Source of the DNA: Naegleria gruberi
Taxonomy: Eukaryota
Assembly: GCA_000004985.1 (NCBI GenBank)
Contig: GG738857.1
Reading direction: 5' to 3' (one strand)
Length of the DNA: 64,000 bases
Positions 1 through 26,908 of the stretch are shown here, piece after piece (the stretch's first letter is position 1; every line of letters begins with the position of its first letter). Below the pieces are notes generated by a model, which saw only the letters and a list, made by a program, of their open reading frames with translations, made no database searches and was not told the DNA's origin. The translations under genes and the position numbers were made by a program.

Positions 1-1826
1 AGTTTAACGGGAAACAACAAGCAAAGTTCCGAAGATCATGTCTGGATAAATGGTTTGTATTGTATTGTATAAGAATATGAATTAATTGTTCTTCTTTAGC
101 TTGGTATGATCCTCTTGCTTCCGTTACCTCTCTTTCACAATGTATGATGTTTTCTGATATTAATGGTGATGGAGACTACAAACTTGTGGTAGCTACTGCA
201 AGTAAGAATCCCTTAGAAAGTAAAAAGACAAAACAAGCTCACAGATTGAGAGTCTATAAAGGTACTGGTATTATCAGCGAAAATGTTTTAATGGAGGAAC
301 CTATTGCACTCGCTTCCTACTACACTGACTACTCATCACCTAAAAGACCTATGATTGTCGTCGCAAGTAGTAATCACATTTACTATTACAAAAACCTACA
401 ACCATTCTACAAGTTTACTATGCCGGCAAAGACTACAGAAGAAAAGGAAGTGGAAATTTGGCAATATTTAAAGGAATCTAAATATGATGCCAAGACTGGT
501 TACGCTGAATTAGCAAGACTTAGAGATCATAATATTACTCTTAGTACAAGGAGTTACGAACTTCTTTCTCTTACATCAAATGAAGATATTAAGGCGTTCA
601 TTGATACCAGGAAAAATTTTGCCTTGGAGAGTCCAAATAATATTACAACTCTATCAATTCTTCCAAAAGACAGAGAAGGAGATGACGCAATTGGATGTCC
701 AGTTGTCGGTACAGAGAGCGGAATAGTTTTTATCTTAACTCCCCAAGGATCACAAATCATGAAAGCTGTTCAATTGCCTTCAGCACCTGTAAAATTTTGT
801 ATTGCTGGTAACTATGATAGTGATTATAGAATTACAGCAGCATGTAGAAATGGAAATGTATATACCATTAAAAATGGAGAAGTGAGTGGCGTGGTTATTG
901 AGTTGGAATCTCATCCAGTTTCTATTGTAAAAATAGACAAAACTTTTGCTATTGGCCTTATGAACAATAGTATTCATTGCTACAATACAAGAGGAAAGAA
1001 ACAATACTCTATCTATTTACCATCTAATATTAAGGACATGGAAGTTCTTGAAATGAGAGGCCAACGTAGTGTGAAATGCATAATAGTAGCTATGGAGAAC
1101 AAGGAATTGAGAATTTATAATGGTAAAAATTTGGTAAATAGGATTGAATTATTTGAAAATATTGCCAGTCTCAGATATGGAATATACGGATCTGAGGTTA
1201 ATAGTTTAATCATTTCTTATAGAAATGGCGGTCTTGATTTTAAAGTTATCTCAAGAAAGGCAAGTTTGGAGAGCAAATCCAAAACTGGTCCACCACCAGA
1301 ACAGGAAGAGCCTTTGGATTTACCCTCCAAGACTTTCCTTTATTTGGAACAAACAAAGAGAGAAGTGGATTATTGCTCTGAAATGCATAATGTTTTCCAA
1401 AAAGATTTGGCAAGAATTAGACTTCACACTGCGAGGGCATATGTTAAAATTTTGACAGATGGCCAAGGTCCATTATCTTACACTTCCGGATCCTCTATTC
1501 GCTTGACGGCCCAAGTGCAAGGACTAGGTCCAAAGTTTAAGATTAATATTGAGGTTCAGAATACTGGCAAAAAGTCAATTTCCCAGTTATTCATTCTATT
1601 TGTTTTTAATGAAGATCTTTACTCGGTGGAGGGTGATGCAAGAAGATTGCTTCTTCCTCCTCTTCTTCCAGGACCAGTATACAGATTTAGTAAGGCAGTA
1701 ACCATGCTTGATCCTTTAGTTGCCCCAGAAACAATGAAATTATATGTTTGTAGTAAGGAGAGTCAAACACCTGTAATAACTGCTGTTGTAAATATGCCAC
1801 CAACAGAAATGATTGAATTAGTATAA
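1..1826 (+). CDS. BBS1: Bardet-Biedl syndrome 1 protein (BBS1, BBSome subunit). 5' partial: exon <1..52, intron 53..99 (GTTTGT..AG), exon 100..1826
   Basis: The translation matches BBS1 in several places, e.g. DINGDGDYKLVV vs human HGDGEYKLVV. Other matches: IYYYKNLQPFYKFTMP vs VYVYKNLRPYFKFSLP; AACRNGNVYTIKN vs AACRNGNIYILR; GPPPEQEEPLDLPSKTFLYLEQTKRE vs [33 protein letters not shown]..QNT.. vs QGLGPTF..QNT... The upstream frame stays open to position 1, and the small intron restores WYDPL (human HYDPM). Confidence 0.85.
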
Positions 1827-2334
1827 ACTTTTTATTAATAATTTGAAACTCTATAATTGCCATTTTACCAGAGAATATTACGATTAATTGAGATATGGAA
1901 ATATCATGATTTAACTTCGCAAGCCATAATGTTCATGATCTTAGAATTCTTTTAAATTCACGGTTTTGTTTTTTGGAGTGCTCCCAAAAAGTCATTCTGC
2001 AAACATTGTGATTTCTTCCCAGTGCTCTGTGGAAGCAAAATAGATGTTAATTTGGTTTGGAATCTTTAGTAAGGGTGTTGAAACAACTCAAAAAGCTCTC
2101 TAATTTTAAAAAAAAACCACTGCTAAAATATTTGGGCCCCTAAAGATTCCAAACCAAATTAATATTTATTTTGATGGAATCATTCTTGAGAAGTGATACC
2201 ATCATTCCATTAGAGTGGGTCCAGTCTTTGTGCTATTCTTTGAATCCAAATTTTGAGGAGAAGGACAAATCAAATTGATAAAAATTCTACCATGGCATTC
2301 CTGTGTCAAAAGTGAATTGACGAGTCAACAAAAA

Positions 2335-3500
2335 ATGCGTAAATCAACATCTGAAAAAACTCTTCCAGAAACAATCAACATAAAAAACCCATCCGAAGAT
2401 GAAAAATCCACTCTCCAACAACAAGATTGGTTTTGTGAATTAGTTTCAACCTACACAGAGCACAAGATAAACGCACTTGAGAAGGAAAATCAAAACCTAA
2501 TCCAAAAGTTGTTGGCTCTAACAGTTGATCAACGCTATATTAAATTTCTTGAATCTATTCCTTCATTGATGCAAAAACAACAAGAGCACAACAAACAAGG
2601 AAACTCTGACAATGAGTACAAAAAGTTAAACGAGAAGCTTGATGAAGTAATTGATGATTATGAGGACGTCAAGAGGAAATTAAAAAAAGCAGAAGAGAAT
2701 GCAAAAAAACCAAAGATGCTTTTGTTGAACAGCACTATTATAATGAAGAGAATATTAAAGAAATCACCAGGAAAGAAGAGAAGGTACGTGAAGAATTGGC
2801 TACCTTGAATGGAAAGTACCTTTATGAAAAGGAATCGTTCTTGAAACAAGTGTCCGAGTTAACAAAAGAAAGAGATCAACTAAATGATCAAATTTCAATT
2901 TACAAAACTCGAAATGATCCTGCCTTGCTGATGAATGACTTTTCTGATAACACAGTCAAAAAGATACATGATGAATATGTCACTTTGAAATCACACGATT
3001 TGAATTCTTTTGTGGGAAGAGTAGTTGAAGAACATTCATTAAGTGAAGATCAGGAATTTGATTTTGATTTAAAAATTGTTGCATTTGCATTCAAAACAGT
3101 CCGTAAACTCATTGAAGAAACCTATTCTGAAATGAATTTCGAACTAATTGGCAAGAAACTTACAAATGAAGAATCAGAAAGAAACCGCCTTATTGAAACC
3201 CTCGTCCAGACAATTGCAAAAATGGAAGAAATTGGAAAGAACAAGAAATTACAACAAGCTGCCAGAGAATTTATAACCAAACTCGTGAAATTCTATTGTA
3301 ACATGTTTCTCATTGATAAGAAGCTTGAATTGGTTTGGGCTTCAACTGGATCTCTCTACAATCCTGAATGGTACGATTCAAGAAATGCAACCAGTAACAT
3401 TGTAGTCACTAATGTTTTCAAACCTGCTCTCATGGACACATTCACCAAAACAGTCTACGAAAAAGGAATTGTTGAAACTACCCAAAAAAGGAAAAAATAA
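2335..3500 (+). CDS. Coiled-coil protein, paralog family member P1, with a conserved C-terminal domain. There is an apparent 1-nt frame change near the A7 run at 2702-2710 (ORFs 2275..2808 and 2796..3500 are the same gene)
   Basis: The ATG at 2335 has an A-rich context. It shares the motif NDPAL(L)MNDFSDN and the C-terminal block LELVW...NPEW...PALM with the ORFs 6801..8432 (-) and 8567..9778 (+). The frame of the second ORF stays open back to 2664 and reads as coherent coiled coil (KDAFVEQHYYNEENIKEITRKEEKVREELATLNGK). Confidence 0.55.
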
Positions 3501-3522
3501 CAATTATTACCTATATCAATAT

Positions 3523-6500
3523 TTATATTAAAACTCTCTTGTATGTAATTAAATATTCAGGATAGCATTGATTCCTATCATAGATAATATATTCATTGTA
3601 GGTGTGTTGTGATACCGACTTGGATCTTCCAATAACACTGTCATAAACTCTTCCATTTGAGTTTTCAATGACAGGTGGTCTTCTTTCATTTCTCATCTTT
3701 TCCCTTGTTTTGAAAACCATCTGACCTAACAGAACTCTACTGAGAAATATAAAACACTCACCATCCTTATTCGAAACACAATATTGATCACTCTTACTAC
3801 AGCAATCAGCAAAGTATATTCCAGCTCCAAACAAACCACTCAAAGCACTCAATCTTTCATCAAAGCCGTGTTCTGAAATGATTGACTTGACTACTTCTGT
3901 TGTTCCATGCCATAAATAAACTTCATTCACATTGGAATCTAATTCACACATTTCGTCAACAAAATCATTTCTAATTGGTATATCCATTACCTTCTTTTTA
4001 TCCTTATAGGAAATTAGGTGTTTCTTCTTTGATAGATACATTTCATAAAGTGATAAATTCTCAATTCTTTCCACTTTTAGAACTTGTAACTTGTTATATG
4101 GAAATGAATCTTTTTCATGGTTTCGTTTCTTTCCTAATGTAATTGTTACACATGTCTTATCCAATAAATCTTGAATATCCTCTTTTAATTCAGCGGTAAC
4201 ATCTATAATTGACATGTTATTTTGATTTGATTTCCAATAGGAAGGCTTTTGTTTCGTTTCCTTTCTTCTTGTCCCACGAAAGAATTCATGTCTTAATAAC
4301 TCAGATGCAGATAAAGTACAAATTTCTTCACGAATATTAATTGAGTCCATTAGCGTTTTCAAAAGAGATGAATATTCATCGAGTCGTTCCATTGACATGA
4401 TGTCAATTACCATTTTCACGAAACAAAACATTTCTTTCTGGAATGGTAATTTGTTTCCCTTTTCCTCTATTTTCACAACATTATCAAATCCATCCAATAT
4501 TAATTTAACTTGTTCATCTTCAATAATTTTCACATACACATTCGCAGCTCTAATATTTCCATGAACAAATGAATAGGTATGAAAATGATGAATGGCTGAA
4601 AGAATCTGAAACCAAATATCTTCCCATCCTGATCTAATGGATGAAAAATCTTTCAATGTTCCAATTGAGTAATATGGCATAACAATACAAAGTTTATCTT
4701 GACAAAGATAAAATCCAATTAATTCTGCAATATTTGAATGTTTGATTTTCTCTAGAATTTCAACTTGTTCAATTACCATTTCAATTTTATCCAATGAATA
4801 TTGTTTAACACGATAGAAAATATTCGAATTCTTATCAACTGCCTCAATAAGCATATAATTCAGAAATGCAGTTTCACTAATTGTAGTCAATTCCAAAGTG
4901 CTTACATCTTGAATTCCTATAATTTCTGATAGTAAATCATAGAATCCTGATCGATAGAGTGTAATTGATTTGTTTCGAATATCATTTCTGTTAATTTGAA
5001 GAGTTTCGAGTTCAGTTTCTTGTTCCATAATTTTTAGACAGGGCGCAGTTGATGTTGAGTTGTTTGTTTCCCACAATTTTTTCTCAATTTCAATTGATCT
5101 TTTGCGTGCTTCAATGTTCTCACTCATTAATTTGTAATTAATTCCATATTTAGAAATATCAAATTTAGAAATTATTGTTAAAGTTAATTGCATATTTTTA
5201 AATTCATTACAGATGGTAGTAATATTATTGATAAAATCAAGGCAATTATTTTTCATATCATCAATAAAGTAGCAATATCCTTTCAATTTCTTTTTCAATA
5301 AATGATACAATTCCAAATTTGGATTTTCTTTCAATAAGGAAAATAATTTTGAAATGGAATCTCCAATATCATTTGTATCATTGCTTATTTCTGAAAATTC
5401 AAGTGTTGAAATATTACTTGAAAAATTTGAAAGAAAATTTGCAACTCCACTCAATTGCTTATTACATGTATTAATCCATTTCTCCAAATTAGTCGAATAT
5501 TCTTCAAATGTTAATTCCAATTCTTCATAATTCGATATTTCATTACATGGAATTTCTTCTCCACCATTCAAAAATTCATTAATTTCTTTAGAAATTTCAC
5601 TCAAACTCTTTACAAATTCAATAAGAAAATTTCCATAATCACTTTTCTTAATTTGATTATTCATTGATTCATGGATTTGAAATTTGCTTCGAAATTCAAT
5701 TAAATCTTGAGGATTTTGTGATGAATAAATCGATTTTGAATTAATTTGGATAGGGCTGAGAAGATTCTTAATATCTGTAAACTTTTTCATGTCATATTCG
5801 TTAATTATGATATTTCTAATAAGTCTATCAGTGGTAAATCTTATAGTTTCCAATTGATTTTTCCTATTTTTGTATTCGAAACCTAATTGGGAAAGCTCTG
5901 TAAATATTGATGCAAAATGAATGAATTTAATTTCTATTGGAGATGTGCTAGTAGATGCTTGACTCACTTCTACATTAATTTCTTTTGTTTCCACATTAGT
6001 CTTATTTCTTTTTTCAGATTTCATTTCCTTTTGAATCGTTTTTATGGATTTCCCGCCACATTTCAATGCTATTGATATTTTGATATTAGGATGTTCTAAT
6101 AATAATTTTCACAATTTCAATTTTATCTCTTTCGCAAGCAACTTGCAAAGGTGTTTTAACCTTCCAAAATTGGTAAAATAAAAACTTGCAAATTAATACT
6201 TACCATCTTTAATCTTAAAACTCAATTAATTAAATATCAAACTTACATTCTGAATAATTCAATAAATGTATACTCATCATTAACAAGTTACTTACACCCT
6301 TATTAACATCCAATTCATTTGATTCCAATAATAATTTCACAATTTCAAGATGACCATCATAACATGCAATAAACAAACAAGTTTGTTCTGATTCTACACC
6401 ACAAAATGTCTTGAATAACAAGCTAATAAGTATTCATTTTGCTTCAAATCATACTTACTTCATTGACATTGACAAGTGACAGTAAATATTTGACAATCTC

Positions 6501-6782: not shown

Positions 6783-6800
6783 TTTTTTTAAACTAAACTT

Positions 6801-8432
6801 TTAATTCTTTTTTGACACTCTGACAATTACTTTTGCCTTCTCATAAATACTTCTCGATTGCAACTGCATTAGGGATGGAAAGACTGTGCACTGAATCTTT
6901 GGAATGGTTGTGTTATTTCTTGCATCTTGTTCGTATGGATTAAAATTGTCCTTTGCTTTATACCAAACGAATTCCAACTTTTTTGAATTGGTAAACATTT
7001 TCATGTAGAGTTCAATTGCCTTATCAAGTAATTCTGAGGTTAGATTACTAACTTCCCGATCTCTACAAATATGCTCAGGATTCTCAACTTTGAATTTGTT
7101 GAAAACGTGTTCAATGGAGGTGAAAATCTCATTGTGGCAGCTTTTGAGTAGTTTTTTCTTATCTGAATCTTCCAATGGCTTGCATCCATAACCTAATTTC
7201 TTGTCTTTCAATCTGTGTTGTAATGATTTGCCCTTATTGTCGTCTTGAGCTGGTGAAAAGAGGTATTTGGCTAATTCCATTTCAATTTCACATTCAAAAT
7301 CTTGTGCTACATCATCTCCATTAAGATTTTCACTCATTTCTTCACAAAGAGAACCCAATGAATTCTTAATTTCAAAATAAGCATCCTTAATTGACTTGGT
7401 GGTATTGTCGGAGAAATTGTTCATCTCAAGAGCTGGATCATGTTCTGCTTTGACAATTCTAAAATTATCTTCAAGTTGAGCAATCTTTGATTCTAAACCA
7501 TTTTTCAGTTCGATTAGTGCTTCTTTTTCTTTCTCAAATCTTGATTGGTTTTCACTTGCTTCGGTTCTCATTCTGTTTTTATCCTTTTCCAGATTTGAGA
7601 TTTTACTTTCAAGAGATTGAAGGTTTGCCTGGAGTTCAAGTGTGTCATTTTTAAGATCCTTATTATCACTTCTCAAATCTTCAAGCTTTTTGGTTGTATT
7701 TTTGTGGCTGTCTTGTTCAGTCTTCAACTTTTGTTTAGTTTCATCATGTTCACTTCTCAATTTGTTGAAATTCTTTTCTAAAGTGTCCTTTTCCTTCTTG
7801 AGATCTGTAAATTCTTTTTTCTTTGTATTCAATTCAGTAATCTTTTGATCTTTTTCACTAACCAATTGCTTTTCACGGTTCTGCAAATCATCATTTTCTT
7901 TCTTTAATTTCTTCTCATTATCTCTTGCTTCATTGCTTTCTTTGGTTAATTTTTTAATTCTTTCATCTTGATTTTGGGATTTTTCTAATGAGATTGATTT
8001 AAGGAATTCAACAAGTTTCTTATCAACTTGTACAGTGTCTAATATGTCTCTTAATCTGTCAACTTCCTTGGTATGCTTTTCTGACTCTTCCTGGATGTGG
8101 TTAACTTTGTTTTTTTCCTTATCAAGATTACTTTGGAGAATAGAAACTTGTTTTCTTTGACTCTCTAAATCTTGTTTAACCTTGTCAAGTTCGTGTTGGA
8201 GGATTTGTGCTACATTCTTTTCCTGGTCCCAATTACTTTGCAGATTGGAGGTTGTTAGCTTTTCTTTATTAAAGGCCTCTTCAATTGACTTGAGTTGAGT
8301 TTGAAGTTGTGAAATTCTTTTTTGATAATGGGAGGGATCTACTTCTTGTGTTGGGGGTGGAACATCACTTGTTGGTTGTTGTTGGGGTTTGATGGTGGAT
8401 GATGGTTTATTTGAATTGGATTCGTTTGTCAT
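6801..8432 (-). CDS. Coiled-coil protein, paralog family member P2, with a conserved C-terminal domain
   Basis: It is a long heptad-rich ORF (K/E/L/Q) with the motif HDPALEMNNFSDN and the C-terminal block LEFVWYKAKDNFNPYEQDARN...FPSLM, shared with P1 and P3. The ATG at 8432 has an aaaaaaaATG context. Confidence 0.6.
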   Translation of the reverse strand: MTNESNSNKPSSTIKPQQQPTSDVPPPTQEVDPSHYQKRISQLQTQLKSIEEAFNKEKLTTSNLQSNWDQEKNVAQILQHELDKVKQDLESQRKQVSILQSNLDKEKNKVNHIQEESEKHTKEVDRLRDILDTVQVDKKLVEFLKSISLEKSQNQDERIKKLTKESNEARDNEKKLKKENDDLQNREKQLVSEKDQKITELNTKKKEFTDLKKEKDTLEKNFNKLRSEHDETKQKLKTEQDSHKNTTKKLEDLRSDNKDLKNDTLELQANLQSLESKISNLEKDKNRMRTEASENQSRFEKEKEALIELKNGLESKIAQLEDNFRIVKAEHDPALEMNNFSDNTTKSIKDAYFEIKNSLGSLCEEMSENLNGDDVAQDFECEIEMELAKYLFSPAQDDNKGKSLQHRLKDKKLGYGCKPLEDSDKKKLLKSCHNEIFTSIEHVFNKFKVENPEHICRDREVSNLTSELLDKAIELYMKMFTNSKKLEFVWYKAKDNFNPYEQDARNNTTIPKIQCTVFPSLMQLQSRSIYEKAKVIVRVSKKN

Positions 8433-8566
8433 TTTTTTTAAAGACGTACGAAAATTTGACGAGTTGTAATGTAATTTTGAAACCTGCATTCCGTGTTCCG
8501 TTCTGTGAATTGACGAGTCATCATTCACTTGTCAAATGTTTAACTATCAAACAAATAATCAAAAAA

Positions 8567-9778
8567 ATGGGATTCTTTGGGTTTTTCAGTGATGACAATA
8601 AAGAAGAAATAAAGAAGGAGTTGAAGGCGGCAAAGGAACAAATTGAATACCAAAAGAAAGAGGTAGAAAGCCAGCGAAACAAAATTATAACATTAGAAAC
8701 AAATAACACCAATTTGCAAACTAGAAACACAACTTTACTCCAAGAATTTAAAATTTTAAACCCGAAACTTGAAAAATTAACACTTGAAAAACAAAATTGC
8801 GAATATATTTCCTCTCAATATCAAGCAAAAGCACAAGAATTGAACAAGAAATTACAAGAACTCGACAAGCAGTACAATTCCACTGTTCAAAATCTCAACA
8901 CTGAATTACAATCTTGTAAATTTCAATTCAATCAAGCAATCACTGAGTGGAAGCAAGAGAAGAACAAATTTGAATTAGAATTGAAAAGTGTAAAACAATC
9001 AAGAGATCAACAAATTTCTTATTCCACTCAATTACATTCAGCATTGACTGAAGAAAGAGAGAATTTCATAAACTTGTCCCAAACCAAAGAACAAGAAATT
9101 GAAAAGTTGAAAGCTGACATTATTTTAATCAAAGCTCAAAATGATCCAGCACTTGTTGTCAATGATTTCTCAGATGAAAGTCCTAAACAAATTAGAGATT
9201 TGTATCTTCAATCAAAATCAAGTATTGACACTTTGACAACAACCTTGGAAGACAATTTGACAGAAGATGAACAAGAACAATTGGAAATTATTATAGCCAA
9301 GACACTCTTTGAGAAATTAGAAGAGACTGTTATGAAATTTGTGTGTGAAACAAAACAAGTTGACAGCAGTGATAGAAAGCTCATTGGTGAATTATTGAAA
9401 TCAGATATTGAAATGAGAAAGCTTGTTATTTATCATACTTCAGTTGGATTAATGAATCAAATTAAGGAACAATTTGCCAGTTTTAGTAATTTTATTGAAA
9501 ATTGTAAAGATGAAGAAAGAATTCAAATTCAAAATGAAATTGACACAATGTCAACAAGTTCAATTTCAATGCTAGCAATGATCTTGAGAAATGAGCAAAA
9601 TATTGGTTTCGTTTGGTATAAACCAAAATCAGATTTCAATACTTTAGAACAAAGATCAAGAAATGCTGATAAGAAAATTGTAATTGATACTTGCATTTAT
9701 CCTTGTTTAATGTTGAAGGGATCAAGAAGTGTTTTTGAACAAGCAGTTGTTACAACAAAATTAACAAAACACAAATAA
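8567..9778 (+). CDS. Coiled-coil protein, paralog family member P3, with a conserved C-terminal domain
   Basis: The ATG at 8567 (aaaaaaaATG) is divergent from P2, with about 134 bp of shared upstream region. It carries the motif NDPALVVNDFSDE and the C-terminal GFVWYKPKSDFNTLEQRSRN...YPCLM. Confidence 0.6.
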   Translation: MGFFGFFSDDNKEEIKKELKAAKEQIEYQKKEVESQRNKIITLETNNTNLQTRNTTLLQEFKILNPKLEKLTLEKQNCEYISSQYQAKAQELNKKLQELDKQYNSTVQNLNTELQSCKFQFNQAITEWKQEKNKFELELKSVKQSRDQQISYSTQLHSALTEERENFINLSQTKEQEIEKLKADIILIKAQNDPALVVNDFSDESPKQIRDLYLQSKSSIDTLTTTLEDNLTEDEQEQLEIIIAKTLFEKLEETVMKFVCETKQVDSSDRKLIGELLKSDIEMRKLVIYHTSVGLMNQIKEQFASFSNFIENCKDEERIQIQNEIDTMSTSSISMLAMILRNEQNIGFVWYKPKSDFNTLEQRSRNADKKIVIDTCIYPCLMLKGSRSVFEQAVVTTKLTKHK

Positions 9779-9994
9779 ATATTTACAAATATTACAAAAT
9801 ATTTAAAAATATTGAAAAAATTACTGTAAATTTTGATCATCACACTAAATCTGCATTAACTTTCTACACAATTGTAGTTGACGGAATTTACGGAATTGAA
9901 AATTGTAATATGACTTAATTTGACATGGGAAGTGTCCATTTCAACACGTCATGTCAAAGTTTCTAATTATCAATTCTCAAAAAACAAAAAAAAT

Positions 9995-11871
9995 ATGAGC
10001 ACCAGCACCCTCATCAAACCACAAGCAGGTAAAAACTTTGTCGTTTGCATTGACTTTGGATCTTCAGGTTCTGGCAGTTCAATTCTCTTCGTAAAGGATG
10101 AAGATAAAATTTTCACTCTCAAAACTTATCCAGACTCCCCTAACGTAGTTTACAATAAGAATATGTCATGTATTTTATATGAAGATGGTAAGAGACATAG
10201 TATTGGTTATACTGCTAGAAAGACAATGTTCTTTGAAAATGATGACGAAGATTCAGATGAAGATTCCGGTGAAGATTCGGATAGAGATTCAGATAGTGAA
10301 AGTGAAGAATCTCATGGATCAACTTCAACTGCTCCATCAAAAAAATCAGCAACTCCACTAAAAGATAGAAAATTTATCAGAGATTTAAAAATTCAATTCA
10401 TGGAAGCAACAAAAGATGAGAAGGAAATTTCAATTCCAGAAATAGTAATTTCCAATGATGGAACAACCAAATCTTTACTTGATGTGATGGCAGATTACTT
10501 ATCCATGTTATTCACAGATTTTATCATGAAGAGTTTAAAGAATAACGATAGCTCTGTTAAGAAAACTGATGTTCGTTGGTGCATTACAGTTCCCGCCAAC
10601 TATTCAGAACATCAAAAATCCCTAATGAGGAAAGTGGCATGTAAGGCAAAGATTATAGATAAGGAAAATTGTGATGAGAGTGATTTGATTATCATTTCTG
10701 AACCAGATGCTGCTACCATGTTCTGTATGAAACATAAGGCTAAATCTAAACCACTTACAAATGGTGAAACTTTTATGGTAGTTGATGCTGGTGGTGGTAC
10801 TGTAGATGGTAAGTTTGAGAAATTCTTGATTTAACATTTAAATTCTGTAACAGTCAGTTGTCATATGCTTGAAAATGGTAAATTGAAAGAGTTGGCAGTT
10901 CAAAAGGCAGAGCTATGTGGTTCTACATTTATTGATAGAGAATTTATTAAGATTTTAGAAGAAAATTGTGATAATTTCAAAGAATTTACAGAGAAAAATC
11001 CAGAAACTCTTGTCAAGATATTATCAATTTGGGAAGATGTTAAGAGAGGTACTTTGACAGTTGACAAGAAATTGACATTTGACACATCTCCAATGTTTAA
11101 AAAAGCAAAACCTAATAGTTCAATTTACAAATCAAGATCTACCAAGATTGCATTAACAGATGAACAAATGAAAAGAATATTTGACAGTCAAGTGTCAAAA
11201 GCACTCAAATTGATTGATGAAGTTTATAGAGATTATGAAGAAGATTATCCAAGTAGAAAGATGGATCACTTATTTATTGTTGGTGGTTTAGGAGATAATG
11301 GTTATTTCCAAAATCGTATTAAGGAAAGATTTGAAAAGAAATTTAAGGAAATTTTAATTCCACTTTTCTGTTCGACAGCTGTCATGGAAGGAGGTGCATT
11401 ACTTGCTAAGGATCCATCATTCGTTCAAGAAAATCAAAGTTATCATATGGTGTTGGTGTCATGGAAGAATTTGAAGAAGGGCATCATGCTGAAAGCAAGT
11501 ACAAGGTCATTAATGGTAAACATATGGCAGTTGACGTGTTGGATGTTTTTGTTGAACAACGTGAAGAAGTTGAAATTGATAGAGAAATTGTTAGAGAATA
11601 TGAATGTTTACCAGGTGCTACTCAAATTGATGTTGTTCTCTATTCATCTATTAAGAGAAGAGAAGCAATTCCTTATATTGATTCACCACTAGTTTCTAAA
11701 GAGGAAACAATTACAATTCCTTTTAGAGATTCATCAAAGGAGGCAGATAGAAGAGTTTTTATTAAATTCTTCTTTGGTAAATCAGAATTAATGATTACTG
11801 TTGAAAATGCACAAGGTGAAGTTAAGGAAATTAAGAGAGATTTTGAAGCAAACTCACTTGCCCTAAAATAA
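9995..11871 (+). CDS. HSPA12-like Hsp70-superfamily ATPase, paralog A. Exon 9995..10808, intron 10809..10853, exon 10854..11871 with an apparent 1-nt frame change near 11410-11420 (possible pseudogene or assembly indel)
   Basis: Shared motifs with HSPA12A: VVCIDFGSSGSG (HSPA12A VVAIDFGTTSSG); WCITVPANYSEHQKSLMRKVA ([21 protein letters not shown]); MVVDAGGGTVD then splice to VSCHMLENGKLKELA (VVVDSGGGTVDLTVH). After the frame change the reading frame gives LSYGVGVMEEFEEG..., which matches paralog B RMTYGVKAQKGSEE and human PLTYGVGV. Confidence 0.6.
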
Positions 11872-12116
11872 ATAGTTGAAATTCCATTCACAAAAATCTT
11901 AATATTTATTAGTATGAGCGAAATATAACCTCAATATCATTATTACAATCTGATCTTTTTCGTTTATCAAAACTGTAGAAAGCTTTTTTTGAACTGTAGT
12001 CACTCTCGAATCGTGATTCATTGTAAAACTTGTCAAACTTACCGATCAGAATTCCGTATGACGTACGATTTCTCATTTCTCATCAGTTTATTCTGTTCCA
12101 TTAACACACAAAAAAA

Positions 12117-13901
12117 ATGTCATCATCAACTGTTCCTGTTCGTTCAGGTTCCCTCAACAAGAAGAAAGTTGTCATTTCCATTGATTTTGGTACATCAAGA
12201 ACTGGTTTCTGTTATTCACTCACCAATGATGTGAAAAAGACTCGAGTTAAGAATACCTCATGGAAAGATGCACCAAGTGGAGTTTCATTCCCAAAGACTC
12301 TCACTCAATTACTTTATGAAAAGAGTGATACAAGAAAACCTGTTGCTTGGGGTTACACTTCACTTGACATGTTGTCAAGAGAATTTGAAGATGAGAGTGA
12401 ATCTGATGAAGATGAAGAAGGTGGTGAAGAGATTCCAGCACAAAATAGCAAGTATTATCATTTCAAGACATTCAAAATGGGATTATTCAATAATCCATCT
12501 GGTATGGTGAAGGATACAACTGGTGTTTTTGAAAAGAATGTTGGTGAATTGATAGTTGACTATTTGAAATTATTATTCCATGATCAGATTAAGCCAACTG
12601 TTGAGAAATCATTGGGATCTAAATTGAATCTTGATGAAGTTACTTGGTGTTTAACAGTTCCAGCCATTTGGAAAGATGAACAAAAATCAGATATGAGATT
12701 AGCTGCTTACACTGCTGGTTTAACAAAGACACCTGAAGCATCTTCTGATGATTTTAAGATTATTCTTGAACCAGAAGGAGCTGCTGCTTATTGTATGGAA
12801 TATCAAGCTTCTAAAGGTAAACCATTGAGAGAGGGCGAATCATTCCTTGTTTGTGATCTTGGTGGTGGTACAGTTGACTTGACATGTCATAAATTTGAAA
12901 AGGCAAGATTGAGAGAATTAGCTGAAGGATCTGGTGATGCATGTGGTTCTACATATTTAGATGATGCTTTTATTATTTATTTGGAAGAATGTTTTGGTAA
13001 GAAATTTGTTGAAACCTTAAGGAAAAAGTATGGCCAAACTTATTTGGACATTTTAAAGATTTGGGAAAGAACAAAAGTTACAACAACAGATTTAACAAAA
13101 GATATTAATGTTGATATGCCTGGTCAATTAAGTAGTTTTTTAGAAAGTGCCAATGTTAAAAGTGATAAATTCAGAGCTAAAAGAGGTCAACTCAAAATTA
13201 CAAGTGAAGCTTTACAAACAATTTATCAAGATTCATTAGAAAAAACAAGAAATCTTGTTGAAAAGCAATTAGAAACAATCCAATCAGAGACTGGTAAAAT
13301 GGTTGATTATATTTTCATAGTTGGTGGTTTTGGTGCTTCCAAAGTAGTTCAAAACTTTCTAATTGACAATTTCTCTTCACAAGTTAAGGGAATTGTAATT
13401 CCAAATGAACCTGCTGAAGCTGTTGTTGATGGTGCTGCATTATTAGGTATTGATGATTCATTAATTTCAACACGTAGAATGAGAATGACTTATGGAGTTA
13501 AAGCTCAAAAAGGAAGTGAAGAAATATTCGATACTTTTGTAATTGCTAATCAAGAACTTGAAGTTGATCAAGGAATTTCAAGAGAATACAAAGTTCAAAG
13601 AGCTAATCAACAAGCTATGAAAATAATCATCTACAGCACTAAATTGAAATCAATTACAAAAGTTGACGAAACTAAATGTCATAAGATTGGTGAAATTCAA
13701 GTACATATGACAGATATGACAGGTGGCATGGATAGAATAGTGAAAGTTACAATGTATTTTGGTAGATCAGAAACTAGAGTTACTGCCATTGAAAAGAATA
13801 CTGGAATTGAGTATAGTGCATTAATTAAGTATGATGGTGAATTATTTTCACATGGTGAAAGTATTGCTGACACTCCACCAGTTCAACCTCACCATTTGTA
13901 A
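12117..13901 (+). CDS. HSPA12-like Hsp70-superfamily ATPase, paralog B (single exon)
   Basis: VISIDFGTSRTG, WCLTVPAIWKDEQKSDMRLAAYTAGL, ILEPEGAAAYC, FLVCDLGGGTVDLTCHKF, YIFIVGGFGASK and RMTYGVKA are colinear with the human HSPA12A motifs. The ATG has an aaaaaaaATG context. Confidence 0.8.
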   Translation: MSSSTVPVRSGSLNKKKVVISIDFGTSRTGFCYSLTNDVKKTRVKNTSWKDAPSGVSFPKTLTQLLYEKSDTRKPVAWGYTSLDMLSREFEDESESDEDEEGGEEIPAQNSKYYHFKTFKMGLFNNPSGMVKDTTGVFEKNVGELIVDYLKLLFHDQIKPTVEKSLGSKLNLDEVTWCLTVPAIWKDEQKSDMRLAAYTAGLTKTPEASSDDFKIILEPEGAAAYCMEYQASKGKPLREGESFLVCDLGGGTVDLTCHKFEKARLRELAEGSGDACGSTYLDDAFIIYLEECFGKKFVETLRKKYGQTYLDILKIWERTKVTTTDLTKDINVDMPGQLSSFLESANVKSDKFRAKRGQLKITSEALQTIYQDSLEKTRNLVEKQLETIQSETGKMVDYIFIVGGFGASKVVQNFLIDNFSSQVKGIVIPNEPAEAVVDGAALLGIDDSLISTRRMRMTYGVKAQKGSEEIFDTFVIANQELEVDQGISREYKVQRANQQAMKIIIYSTKLKSITKVDETKCHKIGEIQVHMTDMTGGMDRIVKVTMYFGRSETRVTAIEKNTGIEYSALIKYDGELFSHGESIADTPPVQPHHL

Positions 13902-17340: not shown

Positions 17341-17413
17341 ATAATATTAATTTTTCATATAAATTGATTGGCAAACAAATATCAACTATGACTAAAATAG
17401 TTTATTTACAATT

Positions 17414-18790
17414 TTAGTAACTTTCTATTACACACGCTTTTAAAGATGAAATAATTATTTCAAATTGTTGTGAACAATTAATATTATGATTTCTTTCTTT
17501 GCAAAATTCAATTAATGGAATAAAATTAGCAAGAAAATGAGTTGTAAAAAGAGATCTCTCACCAATTTCAGTTTTAAATTCATTCTCCAAATTGCTAGAA
17601 TCACAGCAATCGTCACAAATATCAAATGAATCATAACCATCCACTGTTGATTGATAAAATCCTGAACATGTTTGATCACATATTTTACATGTCTTTGTTG
17701 ATTCAATTTTAAAAATATCAAAATTATTTCCATACTTTTGTTTCATGTTTGGAATCAAGTTACTTATTTCTGATGGTAAATGATTTAATAATTCAAAATA
17801 TTGTAAAAATTCAACAATACTTCTTCCTACACATGTCAATTTGTGATCATTTAGGTATGATTTGATTAACCATTTTAGTGATTCTTCCATATTTGGCAAT
17901 GTACCAACACCAACACAATACATGTAAGCTACTCCATATTGTGCAAAGCAATAGTTTTGTTTGGCTGATTTTAACAACCATTCAAGTCCAAGTTTTAAAT
18001 CTTTTTCATAATATTCACCAGAATAGTAATAAATACCAATCCAATATTGAGCTAAACAATTTCCATTTCCAGCAGATTTGAAATACCAATCTGTTGCTTT
18101 TTTGAACTCTTCATTAAGTCTATAATGTCTAGCGAGTTTATGTTGATATTTACTATTTCCTAATTCAGCTCCTTTTAAAAGCCATTTTTCTTTCATTTCT
18201 GATGAATTTTTGTTTAATTTTTTCATTTTCTTTATGGCAGGAAAATAATTTAATTCTGCTGATTTTTCCAAAAATGTAATATCCTTATTATATAAATAAA
18301 TTAAATAGTTAAAAATTGGATTATTGGTTTGTTTGGCACATTTTTTATAAACCTTGTTCAATTTAATTCTACTTTTAATATTTGGTAAATCAATTTCAAA
18401 TTTTTTTAATTGTTTAATAATTGAATTTGGAGAAATAATTAATTTTTCCAATACTTTTAAACTAAAATCACCACTTAAATATAATTTTTCCAATTTTGTA
18501 AATAATTTACAATTAAAAATAGTTTTTAACATTTCAGTATTTACATTATTAAAACTACATTTACAAATTTGTAATACTATTTGACTATTACAAAATTTTT
18601 CCATATCCGAAAGTGAAACAAAACGTGTAGAAACCATTTTCAATTTTAAATAGTAATAAATAGACATATCAGACCAATATTTACAAACAAGTCTATGAAC
18701 CAACCATTCATTTGGTAGATAACTTGAAATGTGTGCTAAAATCTCAGGTGGAATTTCATCATTGAAATTTCGTTTTGATAAATTAGACAT
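17414..18790 (-). CDS. F-box / Sel1-like repeat / ZZ-type zinc finger protein
   Basis: The N-terminal IPPEILAHISSYLPNEWL is an F-box. The middle has Sel1/TPR-like repeats (AQYWIGIYYYSGEYYEKDLKLGLEWLLKSA; AQYGVAYMYCVGVG). The C-terminal Cys cluster CKICDQTCSGFYQSTVDGYDSFDICDDCC is ZZ-like. It is a single exon with an aaaaaaaATG start. Confidence 0.7.
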   Translation of the reverse strand: MSNLSKRNFNDEIPPEILAHISSYLPNEWLVHRLVCKYWSDMSIYYYLKLKMVSTRFVSLSDMEKFCNSQIVLQICKCSFNNVNTEMLKTIFNCKLFTKLEKLYLSGDFSLKVLEKLIISPNSIIKQLKKFEIDLPNIKSRIKLNKVYKKCAKQTNNPIFNYLIYLYNKDITFLEKSAELNYFPAIKKMKKLNKNSSEMKEKWLLKGAELGNSKYQHKLARHYRLNEEFKKATDWYFKSAGNGNCLAQYWIGIYYYSGEYYEKDLKLGLEWLLKSAKQNYCFAQYGVAYMYCVGVGTLPNMEESLKWLIKSYLNDHKLTCVGRSIVEFLQYFELLNHLPSEISNLIPNMKQKYGNNFDIFKIESTKTCKICDQTCSGFYQSTVDGYDSFDICDDCCDSSNLENEFKTEIGERSLFTTHFLANFIPLIEFCKERNHNINCSQQFEIIISSLKACVIESY

Positions 18791-19212: not shown

Positions 19213-20668
19213 ATGGGTAATAAATCTTTTAAACAAGCGAACAACAAATCAATTTCATCAACAAGTTTATCATCACAACCCAATTCCAATTTTAATAACA
19301 ATAACAACAACAATAATAACATGTATCAAAGAAATACTCATCATCTTAGAACTGGTGGGAAGAGTGTAGTTTTTGGTTGCGGATATAATTCAGCATCATT
19401 ACTCGGAGTATCACACTCTGATGTTGAAGATAATGGAGTTCATGGATCAAATTCCTTTTCTCAAGATGTAACACAATTTGTTTTCTTATCAACATTACAA
19501 GAATTATTGAATAATGATTCTCCTGGACAACATGTTTGTCAAATTGTTGTTCAATTTTCCAAAACCTACTTTTTAACATCTCATGGTCATGTCTATACTT
19601 CATTTCCATTAGCAAGAGATGTTCAATTTGATAGTATTTTACCTGATCGTGTTGTGGAAATGAGATCAGGACAGAATAGAACATTATTTAGAACTGAATT
19701 TGGTCAAATTTATGTAAAAGCAGATGGTCCACTCTCTAAAATTACTGGAGTTACTAATACACAAGTAAATAATGTAAAATTATTTGGAGTTGGTGGTTTA
19801 CATTACTGGTTATTAGATGATGAAACTAATCGTTTATATGGTGAAGGAGAAATTAATGGAGCTAGTGTTGAAAAAGTTATAGAATTGAATGATTATTTAC
19901 AGAAAGATGAAAAAGTTAGAGATATTGTTACAGGTGGTAATTCGTATGTTTTTTTTATTTCATTTTATAGTAACAATTATATATAACATTGTTTAAATAA
20001 TGATGAATTGAAATTTGAAATTTGATAATAGATTTGTTTTAATAACAAATAAGAATAATATTTATGTATATGGAGAGAAGGAAGCTTTTGGATCAACAGT
20101 TGATGAACATTATTCTAAACCAACAAGATTAAGACAATTTGATGGAATGGTAAAATCAGTTGTTTGTGGATGGTATTTTACAATTATTTTAACATTTAAT
20201 GGACAATTATGGATGGCAGGTAGAAATACATATCAACAACTTTCATCTAAAAATCTATCATCTCATGATAATGTTGTTCAATGGTTTATAGATGATTCAT
20301 TAGTATTAAATCCAAATGAAGAAATTGATCAAATTGGATCTGGATCAGATCACGTTTTAATATCAACAACAATTGGAAGAATTTTCACAAGAGGAATGAA
20401 TACATATGGTCAACTTGGTAGAGATAATAGAACTCAATCTGGAGTATTTATGGAACCAAGTTTTAAAAATCAAAATTACAAGGAAATTATTTCTAAATTT
20501 GTTGGACCAAAATTTTCAATTTCATTTGCAGATAATAATTTTAATACTTTAAGTTCCTTTTTAATTATTCATTCAGTTAGAGAATCAAAGGAACTTATTC
20601 AAATGAGATCAAAACTTTTAAATTGTTCAAAACAATCTTTATTATCAGATTTAGTAATTTTACATTAA
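19213..20668 (+). CDS. RCC1-repeat (regulator of chromosome condensation-like) protein. Exon 19213..19943, intron 19944..20031, exon 20032..20668
   Basis: It has repeated G.N.YGQLG-type blades (RGMNTYGQLGRDN; MAGRNTYQQL; VVFGCGYNSASLLGV). The GTATGT..AG intron joins ..VTGGNS|FVLITNKNNIYVYG in phase. Confidence 0.7.
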
Positions 20669-21247: not shown

Positions 21248-22992
21248 ATGTCAGGTTTTTCATCACAATCTATTCAAGCATCACTTGTTAGACCATCCAA
21301 ATATAGACATTTAAATGGATTTGAAACTAAAAGTGAGAGATATGAAAATATTAATGTTGGTTATGGTCAAAAATTAAGTAATACATTAAAAACCAATGGT
21401 TCAATCTATGCATTACCATTTAATGTAACAGGTGGTACTTTATCATTTAAATATTTAAATGATTATGGTAGATGGGATGAAAAATTACAAAATTATGGAA
21501 TTATTAAGGCTCACAAGGGAAGATTATCAGATTTTGATATTTCCCCTTTTAGAAATAGAGATCATTTAGTAACTGTTTCTAATTCTGATAATATTATTAG
21601 ATATTGGAAATTACCTACAAATAATAATGATAATGATAATAATAGCAATGATATTTCTTCTTCTAATATTACTTCTACTAATACTTCCAATATAAATGGT
21701 AATAATACTATATATAGAACCTATGAAGAAATGGATTGTGATTTGGAATTAAATGATACAAATAATACAAAATCAACTATTAGTAGAATATCATTTAATC
21801 CACTTGTTGATAATTCACTTGTTAGTATTCAAGGAGATTTAATCCATTTTTGGGATGTTGAAAAAAAGAAAATTTTAAATTCAATTCAAAATTTACCAAA
21901 TCCATCAATTTCTAGTAAAACATTACCAACAGTTGAAAGTTTAGGATGGAATGAATATGGTAATTTATTTATATGTGGTACAAATGATCGTTCCATTAGA
22001 ATTTATGATATTAGATTATCTTCCAATTATAGTAATAATAATAATAATAATAATAATCAATCTAATAATCAACAAATATGTATAACTGAAGGACATTCAA
22101 GTATGAAACCATTTCAAACATTATATTGTGAAAATATGTATATATGTAGTGTTGGATTTTCTAAAAATGGAGGTAGAGAATTAGCCATGTATGATATTAG
22201 AAAAGATTTGAAATGTTTACAAAGAATTTCCATTGATAATGGTGGTTCAGTTTTAACACCATTTTATGATTCAGATATTAAATTACTATATTTAGTAGGT
22301 AGAGGAGATGGTAATATTAGATTTTATGAATTAGAAGGTGGTATTATGCATTATTTAAATGATTATAATTGTCAATCTACATCTGCATCTGTTGATTGGT
22401 TACCAAAATGGAAATTAAATGTTAATAATTTTGAATTGGCTAAATTTTTAAGATTAACAAATGAAAAAACAATTGAAACTCTTTCAATGAGAGTTTCTAG
22501 AAAATCAAATATTGAACAATATTTTCAAGAAGATATATTTCCAGATACTTGGAATGGTCAACCTATTTATAATAATACTAATCAATGGTTAAATACTATT
22601 ATTAATAATAATACTACTTCTATTAATAATAATACTATACAAAGTAATATTAATAATAGTAATGGTAATGGTAATGAAAATTTGAATGAAAATGAATTAT
22701 TACAAACTAGACCAACCATGTCATTAAAACCATCTGATAAAATATCTATCTATGATGTACCTATTAGTGAAGGTGGTAAAATTAGACCATCCACTACTAA
22801 TTTAAGTAAATTACATTCATCATCATCTTTAAATAGTATTGAAAATACTCCAACTACTACATTAGATACCCCAACTACTATTACAAATTATAATACAAAT
22901 GAACAAGTTGATGATGAATTTAAAGATTTAAATGAAAATCAACAATTTGATGACAATGAAGAAGAAGAAGAAGAATTAATTACCATTAATAC

Positions 22993-23023
<31 letters not shown>

Positions 23024-26000
23024 GAACATAATCATAATAATTTTAATGATTTAAATGATATAGATTCATTAATGTCACCAACAGAAGCAACTTCCAAATC
23101 CATTTCCATTGGATTAGTTTCTAGTTTAGGTAAAAATGTAGCACTTGCATCAGCTCATATTCCATGGTATAAAAGAATTACAATGGGAATGGGTTATTAT
23201 TTAGGAATGGCAATGTTTTTAATATTTAAATTTACATTCATTTCAATACCTGTTTGGGTTTATCGTAAATCTACTGGTTACACTCCTCCACCTATTAAGG
23301 AACGTTTCGAACAAGTACCTGTTATTAAGGTTATTAAGAAACCTTCAAGAAAAGTTTCATCAAATATCAATTCTTCTACAAGTGTTAAACGTAATATTGT
23401 TGGTGGTGGTGCTAATACTAATAATAATAATACTGATAATAATAATATAACACCTACTACACCAAATGATTATATTAAATCATCAGTATCTAATACATCA
23501 TTATCATTAACTCCACAAACTCCAAGTGGTAGCGGCAATAATTTAATCATTTCAGATCCACTTGCAAGTGAATCAAGTCGATTACTATCACGTGAATATG
23601 GTAGAATTATTATGGAAGAATATATTGGTAAATTAACTAAAGAAGATATATTTCCTAAAAGAGCACATGATAAAGATACCAATCTAAAACAAGTTCTTGA
23701 AATTGATGTAGTTGACTTGAAAAAAGGTCTCACTCATGTACTAATTTGGGTAAAAGGACGTAAAAAATCGAGAGCAACACTTGCACCACTTTATTGGACA
23801 AGTTTAAATCATAATGATTGTTTCATTTTGGATTGTGGTAAAATTTGTTACATTTACAATGGACAATATTCTAACAAATTATGTAGAGCTAAAGCATTAG
23901 ATATTTCACAAATGATTAAATATAAGGAAAGAGGTGGTGATTGTCAAGTTGTAATTATTGATGGTATTGATTATTCTAATAATGGAAATAATTCTAATAA
24001 TAATTCTAATAACAATGACATGACACCATTATATAAAAAACAAGTATTACAATTTTGGAAAGAATTAGGATTAACAAGTGAAAATGAATTTTGTGAATTA
24101 TTAAATATTCACTTTCCTAAAAAGGAAGATTCTAGTAGTAGTAGTAATAATAATGTATTAAACAGATTAAAATTAACAGATAAATCTAAATTTACATCAA
24201 AAGATGAATTAAATGATGATTTATATCAACAATTTAATGATTTAGGTCAAAGATTATATAAATTAAATTCAGAAATCTTTGAAGAACTTCCACTAAAAAT
24301 AGAATTAAATGAAACACAAGATGAATACATAGAAAGAATATCACCATATATGTTAAGTGTTATAAAATTAAATCAAATACCAGGTGGTGAAATTGTAAAT
24401 TTAAAAGAATTAGAAAATTTATTAAATAATGAAAAGAATTTAATTGATCCAAATAAGGTATCAGAAATTACACAACCATCACATCATGTTTTACATTCTG
24501 ATCAATGTTACATTTTTGAAAGTTTATTTACAAATGAAGTTTTCTTTTGGAGTGGAAAACAAAGTAATTTAAATATTAGAAAATGGGGAATTGCTATTGC
24601 TAAAAAATTAGCACAATATAGATCTTTAAATAATAATCCATTTTCATTGAAAAATCCAATTTTACAACGTTTTAAATCTATTTTAAATAATTCTATTAAT
24701 ATTACTATAAATGGAAGTAATTCTATAAATGGAAATCAATTACCTAATAATAGAAAATATTTATCATCCATTACACGTGTTATAGAAGAAGGTGAACATT
24801 CTATTTATAAACAAAAATTTAGTGATTATCCAGGAATGTTAATGATTCAAACACAATCACAAGAATCACGTGGAAATGTTGCAGAAAAAAAGAAACAATC
24901 AAAAATTAATTTTTTAGAATTATTAAAATCTAAAAATAATTTAAAAGAAGAATTAAAATCTAATTCACAAAAACAATTTATTGATCCAACTTTAGTAACT
25001 ACCATATATAGTAGTAAAATTAGAATGTGGAGAGTGAGTGATTTTCAAAAAATACCATATCAACATTTAGGTCATTTCTTTACAGGTGATGCATTTATTA
25101 TTTTATTTACCTATACAAAAATAGAAGGTGGTAAATCTTTCCATAAATTATTCTTTTGGCAAGGAAGAGATATTAAAAAGAAAGATAAAGGAACATCTGC
25201 ATATAAAACTGTTGAAATTAATGAAATGATTGATGAAGGTGTTGTAGAAAATCAAATTAGAGTTGTACAAGATAAGGAACCTAAACTATTTTTAGATTTA
25301 TTTAAATTTAACCCAAATAGTATGGAAGAGAGTACTACTATTGAAAATGATAAACATTATAAGAAGGTACCTTATTTTATTCATAAGGGTAAATATAGAC
25401 CTTCTGTTTTGGAATCTTTTGAAAAGGCTAACAAATTATCTTCTATTATTGGTAATATTTCTAATAATAATAATAATGGAAATATTAATCCAAAATCATC
25501 ACCATTACCAAAATTAAATATTTCTAATAATACAAATGATAATAATAATACAAATAATACCACTACAACTACACCAACAACACCTACAATTTCAAATGAT
25601 GAAGAAATGAATCTTGCACCTGTTAAATTATTTACTTCCATAAATGGAAATTTAGATGAAAATGAAAAATTTTCACCTCAAATTTTACAATTCCAAACAG
25701 AAATGATTGAAAGAATAATTTCTAAAAATATAAAATTAGAATATTTAAAATCCTATGATTTTAGAAATGGAATTTTATGTGAAACTGATGATTTACATCC
25801 AAATTATTTAAATCCATTTAATTTAATAATTTTTTCAAATTTAAATTTTAATGTTTATTTAAATAGAATTGAACTAAATAAGGAAATTGAACAAGATGAT
25901 TTAAAAACTATTATTTATTATGGAAAATATTGTAAAGAATCTGATAAGAAATTTATTGAAAATAATGTTTTAAATTTATTTAATAATAATAATATAATTA

Positions 26001-26908
26001 CTATAAATGGAAATAATCAAGAATTATTAGAAAATGTATTTACTAAGGAAATTGATCCAACATTTGAATATTTTATTTCTAGATTTAATAATTATTTAAA
26101 TACTTTTGAATTTAAAAATAATTATAATATTTCCTTTTATAATATTAATGATCATTCAGGTGAATTTACTTTAAATAGATTGGATCCATTTGGTGAAATT
26201 GATTTATCTTCTTCACAAGCCTTTATTTTAGATTGTCTTGATTTAGAAGGTAAAATCTATGTTTGGATTGGAATGTTATGTAATATTGAAACAAAGAAAT
26301 TTGCACTTTCAACTACCATTCAATATTACTATACATGGAAATCACAAACTTGTAATGATGAATTTTATAAGAAGAAACCTCAAAATGATGACATGGATGA
26401 TTTTGATCCAAGTAAATTTTTACAAAAATCAGATGAACAATCATTACTTGTCATTCAAGAAATGGAAGAACCACAAGAATTTACAAAACATTTCATTTCA
26501 TGGTCAATTAATTCAACTTCATTCAAAGTTAGATTTAAACAATTACAAGATCCAAATTTAATTTCAAAGGGTTTTGTTAAAACACCAAGAACTCCAAGAA
26601 GATCAAATATTAATGTTCAAATTTCTAAACATGAAAAGAATTTATTTGAACATTCTTCATCCATTTTTGAAATTGAACATTGTTCAAATGTTTTACAATT
26701 ATATAACAAATTATTTACTCACAAAACTTATAGTTATGCAATTTTAACAAGTGGTGCAAATATTCCAGAAGGTATTGATAAATCTAAATTAGAATCTTAT
26801 TTATCAAATGAAGAATTCCAAAAAGTATTTGGAATGGATAAAAAGAAATTTGCTACTTTACAAAATTGGAAACAAACCTCTTTGAAAAAGGAAAAGAATT
26901 TATTTTAA
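21248..26908 (+). CDS. Villidin-like giant actin-binding protein: N-terminal coronin-type WD40 domain, long low-complexity linker, several gelsolin repeats and a C-terminal villin headpiece (1886 aa, single exon)
   Basis: The N-terminus has the coronin signature RPSKYRHLNG plus WD blades. Gelsolin repeats include LNHNDCFILDCGKICYIYNGQYS, IRMWRVSDF..GDAFIIL..FFWQGRD..IRVVQDKEP and LDPFGEIDLSSSQAFILDC. The C-terminal LSNEEFQKVFGMDKKKFATLQNWKQTSLKKEKNLF is a villin headpiece (cf. [35 protein letters not shown]). This architecture is known from Dictyostelium villidin. Confidence 0.85.

Follow-up and report, generated by a model that had tools for sequence, protein, structure and literature searches.

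This study concerns a stretch of 64,000 nucleotides (nt) of contig GG738857.1 in the Naegleria gruberi assembly GCA_000004985.1, referred to throughout as the window. The window begins inside a gene for BBS1, a subunit of the BBSome, and further along carries a giant gene of the villidin type, that is, a class-4 coronin. The initial annotation, made for positions 1-26908, had called the first gene an unmistakable BBS1. It had also read the codon bias, poly-N/Q tracts, aaaaATG start contexts, a Zn2Cys6 factor and the villidin-type gene as Amoebozoa-like biology, and had proposed a flagellated amoeboid protist or another AT-rich ciliated lineage as the source. The features that bear on these questions are listed below; amino acid (aa) positions are those of the encoded protein.

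1-52, plus strand: BBS1 exon 1, partial; frame 1 is open from base 1 and encodes ..SLTGNNKQSSEDHVWIN and the first base of an Ala codon
53-99, plus strand: BBS1 intron of 47 nt, GT..AG (GTTTGT...CTTTAG), phase 1
100-1826, plus strand: BBS1 exon 2 to the TAA stop; beta-propeller, helical insertion and linker, C-terminal GAE domain
17414-18790, minus strand: F-box/Sel1-repeat protein; Pfam Sel1 1.3e-11, F-box-like 2.6e-06
21248-26908, plus strand: class-4 coronin, single exon, 1886 aa; exact match to XP_002679446.1/EFC46702.1, "coronin [Naegleria gruberi]"
21284-22594, plus strand: coronin domain, aa 13-449; DUF1899 1.7e-07 (aa 13-71), WD40 propeller, WD40_4 5.2e-08 (aa 409-449)
23162-23293, plus strand: conserved hydrophobic segment, aa 639-682, PWYKRITMGMGYYLGMAMFLIFKFTFISIPVWVYRKSTGYTPPP; from Kyte-Doolittle hydropathy and cross-genus alignment
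23681-26797, plus strand: gelsolin-repeat region, aa 812-1850, with three or more repeats; Pfam Gelsolin 7.2e-26, 3 stretches
26798-26905, plus strand: villin headpiece (VHP), aa 1851-1886; Pfam VHP 7.7e-14, profile 1-36 of 36, at the extreme C-terminus

It is very nearly certain that the window derives from the nuclear genome of N. gruberi strain NEG-M, a heterolobosean amoeboflagellate, and that its first gene is an orthologous BBS1. The open reading frame (ORF) at 144-1826 on the plus strand is 100% identical to XP_002679440.1. Two diagnostic Pfam domains were found in it: BBS1 (PF14779; E 3.5e-76, 256.5 bits against a cut-off of 27) over aa 1-243 and profile positions 19-254 of 254, and GAE_BBS1 (PF23304; E 9.5e-30, 103 bits) over aa 452-555 and profile positions 1-103 of 105. 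In a search of all PDB chains, human BBS1 (6xt9_A) was matched with E 1.1e-103, residues 3-556 of the query aligning to residues 43-589 of the chain, followed by bovine BBS1 (6vbu_1, E 2.3e-100) and a BBS1 propeller chain (4v0m_B, E 2.1e-76). No fourth distinct sequence reached E ≤ 0.001, and so no chain of BBS2, BBS7 or BBS9 was among the matches. The Naegleria protein thus resembles human and bovine BBS1 in both diagnostic domains and in alignment along the full length, whereas its identity to animal BBS1 is only ~35-40%. Met390 of human BBS1 (M390), the common disease-mutation site, aligns with a conservative Ile.

The database search returned more than 150 homologs of BBS1 at E ≤ 1e-10. 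Identity is 79% to N. fowleri, 66% to Willaertia magna, 50% to Acrasis kona, where the protein is named BBS1, and 49% to Percolomonas; matches in Diplonema and euglenids come after these, and then those in algae, oomycetes and animals, many of which carry the label Bardet-Biedl syndrome 1. Judged by these matches, the ranking of the homologs follows the species tree. The reading frame is intact, and its conservation across Heterolobosea is of the kind expected under purifying selection. By its domains, its end-to-end alignment with BBS1 and the order of its homologs, the predicted protein is a true orthologous BBS1. The description as an unmistakable BBS1 was thus borne out by PF14779, PF23304 and the match to the human chain.

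The gene extends beyond the 144-1826 ORF at its 5′ end. Splicing of exon 1 to exon 2 gives the translation ..HVWINAWYDPLASVTSLSQCMMFSDINGDGDYKLV, and the N-terminus of N. fowleri BBS1, NNHVWINAWYDPLATVTAMSQCMMFCDINGDGDYKLV, agrees with this spliced reading; in particular, the stretch ..SSEDHVWINAWYDPLASVTSLSQCMMFSDINGDGDYKLV of the spliced N. gruberi protein matches ..MNNHVWINAWYDPLATVTAMSQCMMFCDINGDGDYKLV in N. fowleri. At the N. fowleri genomic locus an intron interrupts the identical codon position (AAT G/gtaggt...gattag/CT TGG, with slashes at the intron borders). The Pfam BBS1 match of the ORF starts at profile position 19, the first 18 positions belonging to exon 1, and at the N-terminus the ORF falls short of the N. 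fowleri and Willaertia orthologs by ~30-35 aa. Since frame 1 is open from base 1, with the intron at 53-99 and exon 2 from 100, the predicted start codon of BBS1 lies upstream of the window and not at 144. With exon 1 restored, the length also becomes similar to that of human BBS1 (594 aa in the N. fowleri ortholog, 593 aa in the human chain). The public 559-aa model (XP_002679440.1/EFC46696.1/NAEGRDRAFT_65179) is without exon 1 and bears the label "predicted protein".

The identification of the organism is founded on exact protein matches. In an exact-sequence look-up the ORF at 17414-18790 was found to be identical, over its full length, to XP_002679565.1 of N. gruberi NEG-M, and the three proteins XP_002679440.1, XP_002679446.1 and XP_002679565.1 are placed on one shared N. 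gruberi contig of 573,072 bp. The choice of a flagellated amoeboid protist over a dictyostelid was therefore right, these three window proteins being identical to those of N. gruberi NEG-M. Amoebae of Naegleria change transiently into swimming flagellates (PMC9036621), for which basal bodies and flagella are assembled de novo (PMC9036621; PMC3144413).

The compositional features that had been described were mostly confirmed. The GC content is 28.0% in the whole window and 29.0% in positions 1-26908, and the long ORFs are tightly packed on both strands. Among 11 long ORFs, GC content at third codon positions is 9-31%, which bears out the AT-rich codon bias, and all 11 end in TAA, consistent with the standard code. 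Runs of poly-N and poly-Q are present as described, for instance N9 at 19294-19320 and N8Q at 22034-22060. As to the aaaaATG start contexts, many ORF starts are A-rich and others are not, and the feature is weakly informative in DNA of 72% AT. AT-richness and poly-N tracts, which are common to Naegleria and Dictyostelium, represent convergence and not relatedness, and the same is true of the Amoebozoa-like signal as a whole, which is convergence in lifestyle and base composition.

Villidin was reportedly first described from Dictyostelium by Gloss et al. in 2003. The presence of a villidin-type coronin-gelsolin-headpiece giant in the window was corroborated by the set of Pfam domains, in which both the DUF1899 and the WD40_4 matches exceed the Pfam cut-offs, and by alignment. 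In BLASTP, aa 8-511 of the class-4 coronin matched aa 6-422 of Dictyostelium purpureum villidin with E 2e-32, and the gelsolin and headpiece blocks at aa 812-941, 1077-1353 and 1553-1886 matched villidin aa 973-1080, 1131-1348 and 1405-1666; the blocks are collinear through coronin domain, gelsolin region and headpiece. The order of parts, with coronin domain, gelsolin repeats and C-terminal headpiece, is thus the same as in Dictyostelium villidin, whereas the Naegleria protein is ~200 aa longer than the D. purpureum one owing to poly-N insertions. The nearest relatives are proteins of 1.3-2.0 thousand aa in N. lovaniensis, N. fowleri, Willaertia and Acrasis. Outside Heterolobosea, D. purpureum villidin is the best match (E 9e-78).

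Class-4 coronins were defined by Eckert, Hammesfahr and Kollmar in 2011 with Dictyostelium villidin as the type (PMC3203266). In that survey N. gruberi is the excavate holder of a class-4 coronin, the others being amoebae, Spizellomyces and opisthokont relatives incertae sedis, and the fusion is considered to date probably to the last eukaryotic common ancestor (PMC3203266). The N. gruberi protein was therefore already catalogued in 2011. Since class-4 coronins are found also in excavates, a chytrid and opisthokont relatives, a villidin-type gene is no marker of Amoebozoa. The protein is an ancient fusion of a coronin propeller with a villin-like gelsolin/headpiece module. Its most likely role in the crawling amoeba, by analogy with villidin, is to connect F-actin with membranes.

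Two observations set limits to this picture. Exact protein look-up of five more long ORFs, located in the right half of the window, gave no identical database protein, presumably because their starts or introns differ in the public gene models and not because they come from another species. In addition, no PH domain (PF00169) was found at E ≤ 0.01 in the N. gruberi class-4 coronin, and Pfam searches of the class-4 coronins of N. fowleri and Acrasis gave none at E ≤ 1e-4, whereas Pfam PH is matched in D. purpureum villidin with 1.9e-16. In most class-4 coronins the coronin and gelsolin parts are separated by two to four PH domains, and the number is variable (PMC3203266). Because the class definition tolerates a variable number of PH domains, the PH-less Naegleria protein is a variant of the class and not excluded from it. 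No evidence contradicting the identification as N. gruberi was found.

If the source were a flagellated amoebozoan, similar to Physarum or Mastigamoeba, the villidin gene, the AT-richness and the poly-N tracts would reflect true relatedness to Dictyostelium. The best non-heterolobosean match of the giant gene, together with base composition features like those of Dictyostelium, speaks for such an origin. It is refuted by the three proteins identical to N. gruberi, and the closest homologs of both BBS1 and the villidin-type protein belong without exception to Heterolobosea (N. fowleri, N. lovaniensis, Willaertia, Acrasis), while class-4 coronins occur beyond Amoebozoa too (PMC3203266); we consider an amoebozoan source highly improbable. 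The phrase Amoebozoa-like biology, taken as a statement of relatedness, is taxonomically wrong, Naegleria being a heterolobosean (Discoba/Excavata). Nor is the locus that of a non-ciliated dictyostelid, a placement that the initial annotation had named as overturning its reading; the proteins are those of N. gruberi. Least credible of all, to the point of being negligible, is an origin in another ciliated lineage with AT-rich DNA, be it a ciliate or a zoosporic fungus (chytrid or neocallimastigomycete). AT-rich DNA would suit both, and the fungal option drew on the Zn2Cys6 factor that had been claimed. No such factor was found: regular expressions for C-X2-C-X6-C-X5-12-C-X2-C-X6-8-C gave 0 matches in the six frames of the whole window, leaving room for a motif split by an intron, relaxed spacings in six frames matched only an antisense low-complexity poly-Cys stretch at 55479-55616, and Pfam Zn_clus had no match among the 28 window ORFs scanned. 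At a guess, the claim may have arisen from the F-box/Sel1 protein at 17414-18790, whose tail is rich in Cys. That all 11 long ORFs stop at TAA argues against a ciliate in which TAA and TAG are reassigned to Gln, the chytrid Batrachochytrium is without a BBSome (PMC10074162), and the exact N. gruberi protein matches exclude this option as a whole.

The remaining rival concerns the BBS1 gene itself, which might be a relic without a ciliary role or a diverged propeller paralog, whether BBS2, BBS7, BBS9 or some other WD/propeller protein; either way it would carry no information on cilia. Sub-threshold Pfam matches to BBS2_Mid (23.6 bits, cut-off 27) and to the ELP1 propeller are compatible with a paralog. 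In the N. gruberi record the protein has no functional name, and BBS1 is kept in Acrasis kona, which is not known to have a described flagellate stage. On the other side stand the 256 bits of the BBS1-specific N-terminal domain and the 103 bits of the GAE domain, the end-to-end alignment to solved BBS1 with no other chain at E 0.001, and an intact ORF that is 79% identical to its N. fowleri ortholog and has an intron position in common with it. The initial annotation had named a distant beta-propeller paralog as the outcome that would overturn its reading; the Pfam and PDB matches are BBS1-specific, and we hold a paralog or relic to be very unlikely indeed. Orthologous BBS1 in N. gruberi NEG-M is the interpretation adopted in what follows.

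The presence of the BBSome correlates with that of cilia, and in a BBSome survey the sole BBS sequence of Dictyostelium discoideum was BBS12-like (PMC10074162). In the present homolog list, BBS1 orthologs fall in cilium-building organisms (Heterolobosea, Euglenozoa, algae, oomycetes, animals). By analogy with well-studied systems, in which BBS1 is assembled with BBS2, 4, 5, 7, 8, 9 and 18, the propeller of BBS1 would be the docking site through which GTP-bound ARL6/BBS3 brings the BBSome coat to membranes. The BBSome, as its family and the structures 6XT9, 6VBU and 4V0M suggest, would act as an intraflagellar transport adaptor carrying membrane proteins into and out of cilia. Naegleria BBS1 would then serve the two flagella made de novo in the transient switch from amoeba to flagellate, and would be of use in the flagellate stage only.

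Full-length BBS1 (618 aa, 50% identical) and a class-4 coronin are both kept by the aggregative heterolobosean Acrasis kona. To our knowledge no flagellate stage of A. kona has been described. The retention of BBS1 in this species fits the suggested cryptic flagellate stages in Heterolobosea; such stages were reportedly inferred in other heteroloboseans by the same logic (Panek et al. 2025). In N. fowleri, a 986-aa WD-repeat protein is encoded two genes upstream of BBS1 (contig VFQX01000039.1, 4760-8565, plus strand); its Pfam matches include IFT122-type and WDR90/POC16-type propellers, and the counterpart region of N. gruberi lies outside the window.

The middle region of the class-4 coronin differs from that of villidin in having an N-rich low-complexity linker with a His run and a conserved hydrophobic segment of ~26-30 residues, shared with other heteroloboseans. 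The segment sits in the otherwise unalignable low-complexity linker, at the place where Dictyostelium villidin has PH, and it aligns across N. lovaniensis, N. fowleri, Willaertia, Acrasis and one metagenome homolog. The 19-residue Kyte-Doolittle mean is 1.8 in N. gruberi and 1.6-2.1 across all six homologs. The His run (HHHHHHHHHEH) lies ~65 residues upstream. An unspliced intron as the source of the segment was ruled out by its conservation across genera. It is conceivable, though on balance rather doubtful, that the heterolobosean class-4 coronins have swapped the PH module for a membrane-embedded hydrophobic segment. Together with a weaker hydrophobic stretch at aa 618-636, aa 639-682 would then possibly form a hairpin. 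A buried helix or a protein-protein interface would explain the segment just as well. The 2011 coronin survey makes no mention of such a hydrophobic anchor (PMC3203266).

Beyond positions 1-26908, the following genes were assigned.

42726-44456, plus strand: ATP-dependent PEPCK; PEPCK_ATP 4.6e-160 on the ORF 43320-44456, profile 153-464 of 465
46316-46386, plus strand: tRNA-Asp(GTC), ahead of two dispersed 5S genes
47085-47203, plus strand: 5S rRNA copy 1; Rfam RF00001 (the two copies score 105.4 and 104.8 bits)
49053-49171, plus strand: 5S rRNA copy 2; Rfam RF00001
52257-54597, minus strand: Fritz/WDPCP-like WD-repeat gene of at least 3 exons; Pfam Frtz and tblastn

The last of these appears to be a second cilium-linked gene of the window. 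Human WDPCP, a protein of ~746 aa, is a WD-repeat planar cell polarity effector and a subunit of CPLANE, with the alias BBS15. Pfam Frtz was matched in a 514-aa ORF with 3.3e-10, above the gathering threshold. The N. lovaniensis ortholog (748 aa, 69% identical) matches Frtz with 4.2e-15 over profile positions 26-340 of 548, and in tblastn its aa 117-743 align to window positions 54597-52281 in three blocks; the Willaertia ortholog has 735 aa. The gene thus resembles human WDPCP in passing the Frtz threshold and in the length of the N. lovaniensis ortholog, whereas the match to Fritz/WDPCP is modest (E 4e-15 at best) and covers only positions 26-340 of the 548-position profile. A PDB sequence search with the Fritz-like ORF and a neighbouring ORF gave no match to solved structures. 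Joining of the ORFs 52257-53801 and 49285-52212 into one gene at 49285-53801 on the minus strand was tried and rejected, the 44-nt spacer being without GT..AG. The search for further cilium genes, which had been proposed for the rest of the assembly, is thereby answered in part, by this one gene and within the 64-kb window.

The PEPCK and 5S sequences named in the initial annotation are both present. The ORF 42726-43208, upstream of the PEPCK ORF on the plus strand, is assumed to be an N-terminal PEPCK exon. The two 5S copies are part of a direct repeat of 158 nt with 93% identity, 1968 nt apart; a unit this short shows that neither a larger duplicated block nor an rDNA unit contains them. Apart from the 5S duplication, a repeat scan of the whole window picked up nothing but AAT-type coding repeats and similarity between paralogs.

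In the left part of the window, three neighbouring paralogs (2275-3500, plus; 6801-8528, minus; 8399-9778, plus) encode long coiled-coil proteins that share a C-terminal domain with the motifs NDPAL.MN(D/N)FSD.. and ..(L/I)(E/G)FVWYK.., a domain that weakly resembles Pfam MIEAP (mitochondria-eating protein; E 3e-4, below threshold). The inverted similarity of 6915-6982 and 9597-9664 arises because these genes are paralogous. Adjoining this cluster is a tandem pair at 9920-11871 and 12117-13901, both on the plus strand, of divergent Hsp70-like ATPases with acidic Ser/Asp/Glu-rich insertions; the second matches Pfam HSP70 with 1e-14, and the first is split over several ORFs, presumably by introns. 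The 847-aa ORF at 3523-6066 on the minus strand contains a partial protein-kinase-like domain (Pfam, aa 409-523) and a C-terminal PARP catalytic domain (2.4e-25), and is an unusual kinase-PARP fusion. At 26976-29670 on the minus strand, a PIF1-type helicase is spread in pieces over three consecutive ORFs (PIF1 N-terminal region, 2B domain, C-terminal helicase fragment), which also carry an RNase H1 N-terminal (Cauli_VI) domain; they represent a single gene with introns, or else a helicase that has decayed or derives from a mobile element. A kinesin motor is distributed over two plus-strand ORFs at 37444-40481, with Pfam Kinesin profile positions 1-79 in 37444-38490 and 93-327 in 38625-40481, which implies an intron; the gene has long poly-N/Q insertions.

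Taken together, these results demonstrate that an amoeboflagellate lifestyle was correctly deduced from the gene content of raw sequence alone. The occurrence of BBS1 near a Dictyostelium-style coronin-villin gene is expected in Naegleria and already known, the genome and the gene families concerned having all been published, and the significance of the finding is otherwise small and lies in quality control. The N. gruberi BBS1 record NAEGRDRAFT_65179 merits a name and a corrected 5′ exon. The two genes would reflect two cell forms of one organism, BBS1 the flagellate and the class-4 coronin the crawling amoeba. In the heterolobosean villidin homolog, a hydrophobic segment that had gone unremarked is a candidate membrane anchor; if it is one, the protein would be an integral-membrane coronin-villin by which actin is tethered directly to the membrane.

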